This document shows, one piece after another, positions 703-5,715 of a DNA stretch of 64,000 nucleotides. A program made the translations under genes and the position numbers. The notes under the pieces are model-generated. The model searched no databases. It was not told the DNA's origin and was given only the letters and a program-made list of their open reading frames with translations. This stretch comes from Escherichia coli (GTDB taxonomy: Bacteria; Pseudomonadota; Gammaproteobacteria; Enterobacterales; Enterobacteriaceae): NCBI RefSeq assembly GCF_044647545.1, contig NZ_CP172818.1. One strand, 5' to 3'. Numbering within the stretch: position 1 is the stretch's first letter; every line of letters begins with the position of its first letter.

Positions 703-845
703 TCAAAGCATAAACCGATACCCAATACCGGCTTCAGTAATGAAATGGCGGGGCGGACGAGATCCTGTTCCAGTTTTTGTCGCAAATGCCTCATATAATT
801 ACGCAAATAGTTGCTGTGTTCGACCGCGTTTGGACCCTACACCTG
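703..845 (-). pseudogene. Degenerate fragment of a kdpE-like response-regulator 3' end (winged-helix C-terminus)
   Basis: About 90% nucleotide identity to the kdpE 3' end at 5038-5180, same orientation; would encode ...LEQDLVRPRHFITEAGIGYRFML* but carries an in-frame TAG and a 1-bp indel. I recall a similar fragment annotated as ybfI in K-12, unverified. Confidence 0.6.
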
Positions 846-927: not shown

Positions 928-2247
928 TTAACCGTGTTTATTTTTCAGTTCAAAGCGTGGAGATACCAGACCATACAGTGTCCAACCAAGGAAGGTCACG
1001 ATGGAACCGTACAGCATGGCTTCTTCCCCGGATGAGTACAGCGCATAGAAACTGTACATCGCACCAACAAAGGCAACAAAGTTTGCTACTTTCGCTTTTG
1101 ATGGTGGCACATTGGCGACCTGCTGAATAATGACTAACGCCGCCATCGACAGAATATACGGGATGATATTGGTCACAACGGCCAGGTTAACCAGCACGTT
1201 GAACTGACTGTTCAGCGACGGGCTAATGGTCATCAGTGATAATCCGCTCTGGATGATGACAATGGTCAGCATTCCCTGTACTGGTGCATCGACTTTGCTC
1301 ACACGGGAGAAAATTTTCGGGAAGTACCCTTCATCGGCAGAAGATTTAAACACCTGGGCAATGGTGAACTGCCAGCCAAGCAGCGAACCGCAGCAGGACA
1401 TCACCATCAGCGCCATAATGACTTTACCCACTCCCGGCGTGAACATCTGTGCGAAGGCCAGGCCAAATGGTGCCGTTGAATTTGCCAGCTCCATATTTGG
1501 CACAATCCCGGCAATCACGTTGGTGGAGACGATATAAATCACCGCCGCACCTAACGTACCGCCAAGAACTGCAATCGGCACGTTACGTTCCGGGTTTTCA
1601 ACTACTTCGGCGTTGGCACAGGCAGACTCCAGACCGAGGAAAGCCCACAATGTCATGGCGATGGAGGAACCTACAGCGCTAAAGAACGGTACATGATGAG
1701 GGTTCCATGAGTTAGCGTACAGCGTCGGGCTAAACCAGAACCAGCCGATAATGCACAGACCGACGACCGGAATAATGACCCCCCACACAGTAATGCTACT
1801 GATTTGCCCGGTAATGCGCGCACCACCAAAGTTAGCCACGGTACAAATCCACAGCACTCCGATGGTCGCAAGACCAATCTGCACTGGCGACAAACTCGCG
1901 CCGAGCAGTTCGGTGCCGTAACCAACCGCCGAAATAGCAATCGCGACGTTAGCAATCAGCAGCGAGACACCGTAGGTGTAGTTCGCCATAAAGTTCCCTG
2001 ATTTACCGAAAGCATACTCCGCATAACCGCCCATACCGCCTGATTTACGGCTGAACATGCCGCATTTTGCGAATGCCCATGCCAGCGCCATTGAGCCTAC
2101 GGCTGTCACCAGCCAGGAGATAATTGAGATTGTCCCAACTTCGGCAAGCTTTGTCGGCAGCATGATGATACCGGAGCCCATCATGTTGACCATCGTCAGT
2201 ATGGTTAACTGAACGACGCCCATCTTGTTCGATTTAGCCTGACTCAT
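928..2247 (-). CDS. potE: Putrescine-ornithine antiporter
   Basis: ORF-track protein matches PotE from MSQAKSNKMGVVQLT onward; 439 aa when started at the internal Met; 4-bp overlap with speF. Confidence 0.95.
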   Translation of the reverse strand: MSQAKSNKMGVVQLTILTMVNMMGSGIIMLPTKLAEVGTISIISWLVTAVGSMALAWAFAKCGMFSRKSGGMGGYAEYAFGKSGNFMANYTYGVSLLIANVAIAISAVGYGTELLGASLSPVQIGLATIGVLWICTVANFGGARITGQISSITVWGVIIPVVGLCIIGWFWFSPTLYANSWNPHHVPFFSAVGSSIAMTLWAFLGLESACANAEVVENPERNVPIAVLGGTLGAAVIYIVSTNVIAGIVPNMELANSTAPFGLAFAQMFTPGVGKVIMALMVMSCCGSLLGWQFTIAQVFKSSADEGYFPKIFSRVSKVDAPVQGMLTIVIIQSGLSLMTISPSLNSQFNVLVNLAVVTNIIPYILSMAALVIIQQVANVPPSKAKVANFVAFVGAMYSFYALYSSGEEAMLYGSIVTFLGWTLYGLVSPRFELKNKHG

Positions 2248-4442
2248 AATTTTTCCCCTTTCAGCAGGGTGCTTTGCGCACCACGAGGCTTGATGACATA
2301 GCACCAAACTTGCTTACGACCATCATGTTCTTCGATATAGACACCCTGAAGCTCCGGTGCAAAACCTGGCAGCAGGTTGATCCCTTCTTCCAGAGCGCTG
2401 AAGTAACGCAGAACAGCACCACCCCAGATTTCACCCGGAACAACACACAGCACTCCCGGAGGATAAGGAAGCGCACCTTCTGCAGCGATACGGCCTTCTG
2501 CATCCGGCAGACGAACCAGCTCCACTTCACCGCGTAAATAGGCGTAGTTGGCTTCTTGTGGATTCATGCTGACACGTGGGAAGTGTTCCTTACGAAACAT
2601 CTCTTTTTGCAGTTGTTTCACGTTGTGACGGGCATACAAATCATGCATTTCCTGACACAACTGACGCAGGGTATAACCGGTGTAGCGCTCTTCATGCTGT
2701 TTGTAGATGGAAGGCAGTACTTCTGATAATGGCGCGTCGGACTCAAGCAGTTTTTCGAAGCGTACCAGCAGAGCAGCAAGTTGCTGAAGTTTGGCCATAT
2801 CTTCTGCCGGAGTCAGCAGAAAGAGGATGGAGTTAAGATCGCATTTTTCCGGCACTACGCCATTTTCGCGCAGGAAGTTAGCAAGAATCGTCGCGGGTAC
2901 ACCGAACGCTTCATATTCGCCGTTACGTGCATCAATACCTGGGGTTGTCAGCAACAGTTTGCACGGATCGACAAAGTATTGATTCTCTGCATAGCCTTCA
3001 AAAGAATGCCAGTGCTCACCTGGTACAAACTGGAAGAAGCGCAGATCAACCGCAATTTGCGCTGTTTCATACGACTGCCAGGGTTTACCATCCACCAGTT
3101 CAGGTACGAATGGACGAATATGCTGACAGTTATCGAGGATCAGTTTGCGGGCATTAATGCCATTTACCACACAATCCATCCACATATTACGACCGCTGAC
3201 ACCTTCATGCATTTTGGCGTTGATATCCAGTGCGGCAAACAGCGGATAGAACGGGCTGGTGGAGGCATGCATCATAAAGGCGTTGTTCATGCGTTTGTGC
3301 GGTACATAACGCTGTTGCCCTTTGATATGGCTGTCTTTTTTATGGATTTGTGAAGTCTGGGAAAAACCAGCCTGCTGTTTATGCACAGATTGCGTAACCA
3401 GAATACCCGGATCGTTCTCATTTAGATCCAGTAACAGCGGTGAACAGTCCGCCATCATCGGGATAAACTGCTCATAGCCGACCCATGCGGAGTCAAAGAG
3501 GATGTAGTCACACAGATGACCCATTTTATCCACCACCTGACGGGCGTTATAAATCGTACCGTCGTAAGTGCCTAGCTGAATAACGGCGAGGCGGAAAGGA
3601 CGCGCCTCTTTTGCCCGCTGCGGTGCGACTTCTGTAATCAGTTCGCGCAGGTAATTTTCTTCGAAGCAGTGGGCATCAATACCACCGATAAAGCCATACG
3701 GGTTGCGTGCGGTTTCCAGATAAACTGGTGTTGCGCCAGCCTGTAGCAACGCTCCGTGGTGATTAGATTTATGGTTATTACGGTCAAACAGCACCAGATC
3801 CCCCGGTGTTAACAGGGCGTTTAAAACCACTTTGTTAGAAGATGAAGTGCCATTTAGAACGAAGTATGTTTTATCGGCATTAAACACTTTTGCCGCATGT
3901 TGCTGTGCAATGCATGGCGCGCCTTCGTGAATCAGCAGATCGCCCATTGCCACATCCGCGTTGCACAAGTCAGCACGGAACAGCGCCTCACCAAAGTATT
4001 CCACAAACTGATTCCCCGCCGGATGGCGACGGAAAAATTCGCCGCCCTGATGACCGGGGCAATCAAACGCGCTGTTACCCTGATTGACATAATCGACCAG
4101 TGCGCGGAAGAAGGGCGGGCGCAGTTGAGTTTCATAATGGCTGGCTGCGGTTTCTAACTGACGACCATAAAATTCTCGTCGCGATTCGCAATTCTCAAAG
4201 ACACCCGAAATACGGGGCAAATACTCTGCGGGTACACGTTCTTGATTTTCAGTAGCAATAAATACCGGGATGCCATAACCCGTGGCATCGATTTCATCGA
4301 GTTTTCCGCGTGTAACATCGTTGAGCGATAAAACTATTGCCGCCACATCGATATTACTGTTTTCATTAATATAGATACATTCTCGCTGCGTGGTAAAACA
4401 GTCCGGGCAAGAATCACTAACCGCAATTTTTAATTTTGACAT
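2244..4442 (-). CDS. speF: Inducible ornithine decarboxylase
   Basis: ORF-track protein matches SpeF from MSKLKIAVSDSCPDC onward; 732 aa when started at the internal Met. Confidence 0.95.
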   Translation of the reverse strand: MSKLKIAVSDSCPDCFTTQRECIYINENSNIDVAAIVLSLNDVTRGKLDEIDATGYGIPVFIATENQERVPAEYLPRISGVFENCESRREFYGRQLETAASHYETQLRPPFFRALVDYVNQGNSAFDCPGHQGGEFFRRHPAGNQFVEYFGEALFRADLCNADVAMGDLLIHEGAPCIAQQHAAKVFNADKTYFVLNGTSSSNKVVLNALLTPGDLVLFDRNNHKSNHHGALLQAGATPVYLETARNPYGFIGGIDAHCFEENYLRELITEVAPQRAKEARPFRLAVIQLGTYDGTIYNARQVVDKMGHLCDYILFDSAWVGYEQFIPMMADCSPLLLDLNENDPGILVTQSVHKQQAGFSQTSQIHKKDSHIKGQQRYVPHKRMNNAFMMHASTSPFYPLFAALDINAKMHEGVSGRNMWMDCVVNGINARKLILDNCQHIRPFVPELVDGKPWQSYETAQIAVDLRFFQFVPGEHWHSFEGYAENQYFVDPCKLLLTTPGIDARNGEYEAFGVPATILANFLRENGVVPEKCDLNSILFLLTPAEDMAKLQQLAALLVRFEKLLESDAPLSEVLPSIYKQHEERYTGYTLRQLCQEMHDLYARHNVKQLQKEMFRKEHFPRVSMNPQEANYAYLRGEVELVRLPDAEGRIAAEGALPYPPGVLCVVPGEIWGGAVLRYFSALEEGINLLPGFAPELQGVYIEEHDGRKQVWCYVIKPRGAQSTLLKGEKL

Positions 4443-4699
4443 TTTCCAACTCTTTATTTTTGGTAATAGCAGGTCCTCAATTTCTCGAATGAGAAATCGA
4501 TCGTGCCGGAAAAAAAGCAAAGTTACCCCGCTGATAAATTAATCAGAAGTTTGCTTTTTTCAGAATGCAGAAACCCTTATCAGTCCGGTGGCTGATAATA
4601 CAAGGGTTAACAGAGAATGAGCACTGCGGAATACAGGCATATGCCTGTAATACAGAGAGTCAGGAAGACCTGTACGCTGAAGTGCCCTTAGTCGGTAGA

Positions 4700-4804
4700 C
4701 TAACGGGCATTGAAGAAGTGAAAGTCGAAGCTATTGCGATGAGCAAACTTCATAATATGAGTTGTCCGCCTTATATGGGGCATAGTGCGGCTGTTATTTT
4801 CCAT
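4700..4804 (-). CDS. speFL: speF leader/arrest peptide, 34 aa (ornithine-sensing)
   Basis: Direct translation of the reverse strand gives MENNSRTMPHIRRTTHIMKFAHRNSFDFHFFNAR*; not in the ORF track because it is under 60 aa. Confidence 0.8.
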   Translation of the reverse strand: MENNSRTMPHIRRTTHIMKFAHRNSFDFHFFNAR

Positions 4805-4970
4805 TTAATTTACCTTTCCTGATGTGAATGAAGGTGAAGGTATTCTATCCAGGAAATACGGTTGAACTGTGAAGGTGATCAATAAAAAATGATCAATCTT
4901 AATTTATTTAATGATGAGCTTTTTACTCAGTAATATAAAATATTGAATTGTTATTTTTGTGTGTTGTTTA

Positions 4971-5002
4971 AGATAAAAAGCCGTATTTATTATTACGGCT
5001 TT
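4971..5002 (-). terminator. Intrinsic terminator downstream of kdpE
   Basis: Hairpin agccgta...tacggct followed by a T-tract on the reverse strand. Confidence 0.5.
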
Positions 5003-5037
5003 AATTAATAAAAGGCAGGATGTATTAAAATTAATAT

Positions 5038-5715
5038 TCAAAGCATAAACCGATACCCAATACCGGTTTCAGTAATGAAATGGCGGGGGCGAGCGGGATC
5101 CTGTTCCAGTTTTTGTCGCAGATGTCCCATATAAATACGCAAATAATGGCTGTGTTCGACCGCGTTTGGCCCCCACACCTGGTTAAGGAGCTGGCGCTGG
5201 GTGAGCACTTTTCCGGCATTGTTGAGCAGCACCGCCAGCAGGCGAAACTCAATCGGGGTGAGATGCACCTCTTCCTCACCGCGATGGATCACGCGGGCGG
5301 CTAAATCGACGGTCACATCGGAAAATTTCACCAGCGGATCGGGCGCGGTGGTGGCGGAGTGGCGGCGTAAAGCGACGCGCAGACGGGCCTGCAATTCGCC
5401 AATACCAAATGGCTTACTCAGGTAATCATCCGCTCCGGCATCCAGCGCGGCGATTTTGTCGCTCTCTTCGCTACGTGCGGAAAGCACAATTACGGGCACC
5501 GCGCTCCACTGGCGCAGGTCGCGGATAAACTCAATCCCATCGCCATCGGGCAGGCCGAGATCGAGAATAATCAAATCTGGTTTACGGGTTGCCGCTTCCA
5601 GCAAGCCCCGTTGTAGCGTTTCGGCTTCAAAGACGCGCATACCGTCGCCCTCCAGCGCTGTGCGCAGAAAGCGACGAATAGCTTGTTCATCTTCAACAAT
5701 CAGAACGTTTGTCAC
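5038..5715 (-). CDS. kdpE: Two-component response regulator KdpE
   Basis: 225-aa ORF with receiver and winged-helix domains, immediately downstream of and overlapping kdpD. Confidence 0.95.
   Translation of the reverse strand: MTNVLIVEDEQAIRRFLRTALEGDGMRVFEAETLQRGLLEAATRKPDLIILDLGLPDGDGIEFIRDLRQWSAVPVIVLSARSEESDKIAALDAGADDYLSKPFGIGELQARLRVALRRHSATTAPDPLVKFSDVTVDLAARVIHRGEEEVHLTPIEFRLLAVLLNNAGKVLTQRQLLNQVWGPNAVEHSHYLRIYMGHLRQKLEQDPARPRHFITETGIGYRFML

Follow-up and report, generated by a model that had tools for sequence, protein, structure and literature searches.

The 34-codon open reading frame on the minus strand at positions 4700-4804 of the window, the window being the whole 64,000-nucleotide stretch of Escherichia coli DNA that was analysed, is very probably speFL, the leader ORF of the E. 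coli speFL-speF-potE operon (probability of about 0.95). The ORF starts with ATG and ends with a UAG stop at 4700-4702, and direct translation, the ORF list and RefSeq all place it at these boundaries. Its translation, MENNSRTMPHIRRTTHIMKFAHRNSFDFHFFNAR*, is identical letter for letter to the one given in an initial annotation of this DNA, which had recognised it as the ornithine-sensing arrest peptide SpeFL. This recognition is borne out by the RefSeq label and by identity at 34/34 residues to the SpeFL chain of PDB 6TBV/6TC3 (E = 7.6e-20). The window speFL is thus the type member of a family that is already known and adds no new biology; it matters here as an annotation point only, being a 34-codon regulatory gene that is invisible under ORF-length cut-offs.

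Identity and annotation of the leader ORF

Alignment to annotated speFL, which had been proposed as a check, gave identity at 105/105 nucleotides with annotated E. coli copies, among them b4803 of E. coli K-12 MG1655. Several E. coli chromosomes match a 701-nt query over the site at 100% identity and bear RefSeq entries for kdpE, 'speFL: leader peptide SpeFL' and speF there; in one of them, which has the same sequence as the window, the RefSeq speFL CDS falls exactly on 4700-4804. The sole Pfam match of the peptide is PF10940 'Leader peptide SpeFL' (E = 4e-5), with a score of 23.8 bits against a gathering cut-off of 25, a threshold that is operational and not a biological criterion here because the query is the type sequence of the family. 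The allele typical of O157 strains scores 27.9 bits and peptides of other genera score 23-47 bits. No HMM of NCBIfam matched the peptide in scans with E up to 0.01 and then up to 10, so the RefSeq gene name does not derive from the NCBIfam HMM library, and a search of all Rfam families on both strands of 4300-5200 with E up to 1 returned 0 matches. Annotation by HMM thresholds would therefore miss a K-12-type SpeFL, which lies 1.2 bits under the Pfam cut-off and is without an NCBIfam HMM.

The initial annotation had remarked that speFL was missing from the ORF track. This is probably explained by length, as the default cut-off of the ORF tool is 60 aa and the 34-aa speFL falls below it; in the program-made list with a minimum length of 20 aa it appears as '4700..4804 - 34aa ATG'. 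The sole ORF of at least 60 aa over the site is an 85-aa antisense ORF (4565-4822, plus strand), a spurious frame that may be displayed in place of speFL. With 137 ORFs of 20 aa or more lying in or reaching into the first 9 kb of the window, the existence of a 34-aa ORF is by itself insignificant, and it is identity and conservation, not ORF length, that lift speFL above chance.

Start signals and upstream region

A Shine-Dalgarno sequence, AGGAAAGG, can be read on the minus strand at 4813-4820, ending 8 nt 5' of the speFL ATG, and a purine-rich AGG/GGA block occupies the same position in most of the orthologous loci. In Salmonella the transcription start site (TSS) of the operon maps 31 nt 5' of orf34, which places orf34 at +32 (PMC6386406). 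By homology, a candidate -10 hexamer, TAGAAT, would lie at 4842-4847 (minus strand) and the TSS of the speF operon near 4835, with the speFL AUG likewise at +32. The block GGATAGAATA near the putative -10 hexamer is common to both of the diverged alleles found within E. coli. A strict sigma-70 consensus scan of 4400-5100 called no promoter site, and the placement of promoter and TSS is consequently by homology to Salmonella only. TTCACA at 4868-4873 was considered as a canonical -35 element and rejected, as its spacer to TAGAAT would be 20 nt.

Further upstream, about 30-50 nt 5' of the putative -10 hexamer, lies a repeat, TGATCATTTTTTATTGATCA (4876-4897, minus strand), which contains two GATC Dam sites. 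It is among the few blocks kept between the diverged E. coli upstream regions, the O157 version reading TGATCGTTTTTTGTTGATC, and could be a candidate regulator-binding site for the acid and anaerobic induction of speF.

Functional elements of the peptide

All published functional elements of speFL are found in the window sequence. The sensor motif HIRRxxH is present as HIRRTTH in codons 10-16 (4757-4777, minus strand), within a stretch that reads P9-H10-I11-R12-R13-T14-T15-H16. In the cryo-EM structure of the K-12 peptide on the ribosome 23S rRNA and the residues Pro9, Arg12 and Arg13 jointly bind a single L-ornithine, HIRRxxH forms the recognition loop, and Phe residues F20, F26, F28, F30 and F31 form a core (10.1101/604074). 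Both arginines of the motif are encoded by rare codons (4766-4771, minus strand), namely AGG for R12 (4771-4769) and CGG for R13 (4768-4766). The effector domain comprises codons 14-34 (4703-4765, minus strand) and has all five effector phenylalanines as well as N32; the remaining elements at the 3' end are A33 and R34, the P-site residues at the published stall, and the UAG stop. The HIRRxxH motif is mutationally required and Phe26 is described as a strictly conserved effector residue, while the displacement of U2585 by Asn32 leaves RF1 unable to act (10.1101/604074).

In K-12, ornithine causes a dose-dependent, puromycin-resistant stall with codon 33 or 34 in the P-site, and a speF-lacZ fusion gains ornithine induction from speFL plus the 257-nt leader and becomes constitutively expressed in the presence of bicyclomycin (10.1101/604074). 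The ornithine stall relieves Rho-dependent termination ahead of speF (10.1101/604074; PMC6386406). The rare arginine codons 12-13 play a role in the exposure of the rut site, and a synonymous swap to common arginine codons has already been reported to have partial effects in K-12 (10.1101/604074). In Salmonella, where an orf-lacZ translational fusion is expressed, Rho yields a transcript of about 157 nt when orf34 is not translated, and the same two codons mediate an effect of arginine on mRNA stability via RNase G (PMC6386406).

Structure of the leader RNA

The published RNA polymerase pause hairpin is predicted at 4683-4709 (minus strand) as a stem of 11 bp with one bulge, which runs from the last base of codon 32 through codons 33-34 and the UAG stop to 17 nt further downstream. 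The minimum free energy (MFE) fold of the 121 nt around it, which includes the hairpin, is better than those of 200/200 shuffled sequences (z = -3.7), and 22 Enterobacteriaceae sequences retain the stem, with compensatory changes at 3 of 7 consensus pairs. C is abundant and G scarce in the 3' half of speFL and the proximal leader, the C/G ratio being 1.4-2.3 over bases 4646-4795 when computed in every 60-nt segment starting between 4795 and 4705. In its base composition this stretch would fit a rut site that overlaps speFL.

The leader between speFL and speF is 257 nt long (4443-4699, minus strand), and the 426-nt leader that runs from the putative TSS has an MFE fold with z = -4.4 relative to shuffles. 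This fold contains a predicted long-range helix on the minus strand whose upstream arm (4713-4726, transcript nt 110-123) lies in speFL codons 27-31 and whose downstream arm (4438-4454, nt 382-398) takes in the Shine-Dalgarno sequence and AUG of speF. In Salmonella, ORF nucleotides 99-125 pair with the speF RBS, as proven by compensatory mutations of C116/A117 and U510/G511 (PMC6386406). In the pairs parsed from the MFE fold of the window sequence, transcript bases C116/A117, which carry the same numbers as the bases mutated in Salmonella, pair with G389/U388.

An additional element consisting of an A6-tract, a hairpin and a U7-tract was found as a terminator-like match and in the MFE fold at 4510-4560 (minus strand), about 70-120 nt 5' of the speF AUG. 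It is kept, with changes in the stem, in Escherichia, Citrobacter, Phytobacter, Yokenella, Enterobacter and Kluyvera, and judged by these features it looks like an intrinsic terminator. The consensus fold of the last 140 nt 5' of speF, computed from 22 sequences, holds one small hairpin only, and no Rho-independent terminator was seen in the Salmonella leader (PMC6386406).

Expected mode of action

In the window strain, the mechanism that is established for the identical K-12 sequence would run as follows. Transcription would begin about 31 nt 5' of speFL, and a ribosome translating speFL would melt the pause hairpin. At low ornithine the ribosome would terminate at the UAG and depart, while the AGG-CGG codons 12-13 hold back the ribosomes that follow; the C-rich rut site overlapping speFL would thus be exposed and Rho would stop transcription ahead of speF. 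At high ornithine one molecule of L-ornithine would lodge between the 23S rRNA and the nascent HIRRxxH sensor hairpin, whereupon the Phe-rich C-terminal domain would compact in the exit tunnel and shift U2585 such that RF1 is blocked. The stalled ribosome, with codon 33 or 34 in its P-site, and the queue behind it would then mask the rut site and allow transcription to proceed into speF-potE. Translation of speFL would in addition open the long-range helix that otherwise sequesters the speF RBS, and pausing at the two arginine codons would provide an arginine-responsive layer acting on mRNA stability. The latter layer, which arises from the rare arginine codons (PMC6386406), was not mentioned in the initial annotation.

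Conservation and alternative readings

A search for SpeF in one genome per species yielded 80 loci, and up to 800 nt upstream of each was examined. Three loci had too little upstream DNA, leaving 77 that could be assessed. The initial annotation had named a lack of conservation upstream of speF as evidence that would speak against it, and the survey found the opposite, with a SpeFL-like upstream ORF (uORF) at 60/77 loci, a copy truncated at its N-terminus in Shewanella hafniensis, and 16 loci without one. The positive loci belong to Escherichia, Citrobacter, Salmonella, Enterobacter, Raoultella, Kluyvera, Hafnia, Edwardsiella, Proteus, Morganella, Serratia, Yersinia, Plesiomonas, Shewanella and the Sutterella/Burkholderiaceae group. 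Within the 800 nt upstream, a SpeFL-like uORF was not found at nine Pseudomonas loci, at two second gene copies in Yersinia and Edaphovirga, and in three betaproteobacterial metagenome-assembled genomes (MAGs) that are labelled Paludibacterium, Burkholderiaceae and Sutterella respectively. Pseudocitrobacter faecalis (L027) and Escherichia sp. ESNIH1 (L077) have no SpeFL-like ORF in any frame of a kdpE-speF spacer of about 250 nt. The speF-like genes of these two genomes directly follow kdpE and are 80-81% identical to SpeF, and the loci are either leaderless speF loci or harbour another paralogue at the same site.

The SpeFL family has been described as gamma-proteobacterial (10.1101/604074). 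SpeFL-like uORFs, for example MHVNAYVQNSVIRRIRHIMCFVCRSCFSFHRFSSASTNAS, were also observed in betaproteobacterial MAGs of gut Sutterella and Burkholderiaceae (L053, L058, L059, L060, L065, L066 and L078), where they lie 165-400 nt 5' of speF-like genes and match PF10940 with 23-38 bits. Most of these Sutterella-type uORFs extend by 6-18 codons beyond the point where the E. coli frame stops, the 33-aa uORF of L078 by only about 3, and owing to this extension any arrest on a Sutterella-type uORF would occur during elongation and not at termination.

Codon statistics were obtained by comparing 46 nucleotide-distinct 34-codon orthologues of the MENN type with the window. Mean pS is 0.77 and mean pN 0.11, which gives a pN/pS of 0.14, and variation falls mostly on third codon positions, which are variable in 29 of the 34 codons compared with 18 for first and 17 for second positions. 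Residues M1, E2, N3, N4, H10, I11, R12, R13, H16, M18, R23, F26 and F28 are invariant. This is the pattern of a protein-coding sequence, and it shows strong purifying selection on speFL across genera.

The conservation of the arginine codons bears on an alternative according to which speFL is mainly an arginine-sensing attenuator, where the speed of the ribosome at codons 12-13 would set the fold of the speF mRNA and its decay by RNase G, and ornithine would be secondary. Rare arginine codons are kept at both positions in the orthologues (AGG in 34 and CGA in 9 of the 46 at codon 12, CGG in 24 and CGA in 12 at codon 13), the window has AGG-CGG, and arginine-dependent destabilisation via these codons occurs in Salmonella (PMC6386406). 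However, selection acts on the whole peptide, as is evident from the low pN/pS and from the invariance of H10, I11, H16, M18, R23, F26 and F28 outside the two codons, while a double frameshift in the speFL template abolishes stalling and ornithine is visible in the cryo-EM map (10.1101/604074). An attenuator that mainly senses arginine is therefore unlikely, and the arginine and ornithine mechanisms are layers of one system and not alternatives.

The same codon statistics bear on the possibility that the AT-rich leader regulates through RNA structure alone and contains the ORF by chance, as an untranslated frame. Short ORFs are as frequent in this part of the window as noted above and the leader is strongly structured (z = -4.4), yet conservation is codon-periodic, synonymous sites are near saturation, the Shine-Dalgarno sequence stands at the correct spacing, and a peptide of identical sequence has been seen on the ribosome. 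As Salmonella mutants in the start codon or with premature stops moreover lose speF expression altogether (PMC6386406), a chance frame is extremely improbable. That the antisense ORF is a real gene of which speFL is the shadow is rejected and has next to no probability: no other ORF over the site reaches 60 aa, but the antisense frame is interrupted by a stop within the span of speFL in 16/48 orthologues, the second E. coli allele among them, its protein sequence shows poor conservation, and the most variable positions are the third positions of speFL codons, which are first positions in the antisense frame.

The operon in this strain and alleles within E. coli

The reading as a speFL leader is matched by the gene order, which is kdpE, speFL, speF and potE, with flanking ORFs that are all full length; the KdpE ORF upstream of speFL has 225 aa. 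The regulated gene, speF (2244-4442, minus strand), encodes the inducible ornithine decarboxylase of 732 aa, which scores 1429 bits against NCBIfam TIGR04301 'ornithine decarboxylase SpeF' (cut-off 1310) over model positions 1-719/719. The second gene of the operon, potE (928-2247, minus strand), encodes the putrescine-ornithine antiporter of 439 aa, with 852.8 bits against NCBIfam NF007938 (cut-off 409). RefSeq annotation of both genes agrees with the NCBIfam assignments. The 257-nt gap between speFL and speF equals the figure for K-12 (10.1101/604074), and the intergenic sequence between kdpE and speF has, over its whole length, 99% identity to K-12. The differences amount to about 10 substitutions or single-base indels in the distal leader, all of them at least 114 nt past the stop, and one further base directly after the putative -10 hexamer.

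The initial annotation had described the peptide as intact, and this stands, since the sequence agrees with K-12 at every base of speFL, of the pause hairpin and of the leader's first 113 nt, and both speF and potE are full length. Judged by sequence identity, the regulatory logic of the operon is likely to be preserved in the window strain, and all elements are expected to work here as in K-12 and Salmonella. With speFL and speF-potE both intact, the strain is predicted to be able to respond to ornithine by switching on the synthesis and export of putrescine.

Just 3' of potE, at 703-836 (minus strand), is a remnant of a winged-helix regulator of the OmpR/CadC type, which matches Pfam Trans_reg_C below the cut-off (E = 0.0037) and is annotated by RefSeq as a frameshifted partial pseudogene. 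The K-12 counterpart at this position is the ybfI pseudogene.

Among 5,426 complete E. coli genomes, 1,701 carry the window allele, the K-12 type beginning MENNSRT, at an identity of at least 99%, and 3,347 carry the O157-type allele, which begins MENNNRLMPH. One or the other allele is thus present in about 5,048 of the genomes, and the speF-potE operon is covered to at least 80% in 5,026. The notion that speFL is missing from about 70% of E. coli was rejected, as the 3,347 further genomes carry the diverged allele, a divergence that megablast does not bridge. A Nei-Gojobori count over the 105 nt gives about 12 synonymous and 3 non-synonymous differences between the two alleles, and the peptides have two replacements, at residues 5 and 7, and are identical from residue 8 on. 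The intergenic regions are about 83% identical (window 4430-5045 compared with L002 540-1320, O157:H7); the O157-type leader has a 51-nt insertion between speFL and speF, and its kdpE-speFL spacer is mostly different. That the two types are distinct regulatory alleles with a different set-point for ornithine, arginine or pH, kept apart by selection or recombination and not by neutral drift, is an unlikely proposition; if it were true, the window would carry the minority regulatory setting.

Two further observations concern the annotation of this site in other E. coli strains. In CFT073 (NC_004431.1; L084 4996-5037) an in-frame deletion of 63 nt in speFL removes the HIRRxxH sensor and the rare arginine codons and leaves MENSFDFHFFNAR* (13 aa), with speF-potE intact; the RefSeq label at this spot is a 'TonB-dependent receptor' fragment. 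The deletion occurs in 1/5,426 genomes, for which reason it was rejected as a lineage marker, and it may be strain-specific or an error of an old assembly. O157-type genomes have a 44-aa 'hypothetical protein', WP_001299172.1 (L002 725-859), on the same strand as speFL and overlapping its start by 22 nt, which probably is no real gene but a false prediction within the promoter and 5' UTR of speFL.

Comparison with known systems

The closest known system is SpeFL/orf34 of K-12 (b4803, PF10940), with which the window shares the same peptide, CDS, spacing, hairpin, rare arginine codons, UAG stop and flanking genes. In alpha-proteobacteria, a cis-regulatory leader 5' of an ornithine decarboxylase gene is known as the speF 5' UTR element of Rfam (speF motif); unlike speFL it is an RNA motif without a leader peptide.

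TnaC, the tryptophan-sensing leader peptide of tnaCAB, resembles SpeFL in that the nascent peptide and a free amino acid in the exit tunnel block the action of the release factor at the stop codon, and in that the ribosome, once stalled, covers a rut site and so keeps Rho from terminating transcription (comparison in 10.1101/604074). The two peptides are unrelated in sequence, TnaC responds to L-Trp and ends in a UGA codon read by RF2 whereas SpeFL responds to L-ornithine and ends in a UAG codon read by RF1, and SpeFL, unlike TnaC, has a separate N-terminal sensor hairpin. The classical attenuators trpL, hisL and leuL also employ a short uORF in which the progress of the ribosome over regulatory codons decides the fate of the transcript, and the rare codons for R12-R13 of speFL are a codon-speed input comparable to these. 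The classical attenuators, however, use runs of codons for the end product together with an intrinsic terminator and antiterminator, and the sequence of their peptides is otherwise unconstrained, whereas in the case of speFL sensing resides in the peptide sequence and termination is Rho-dependent.
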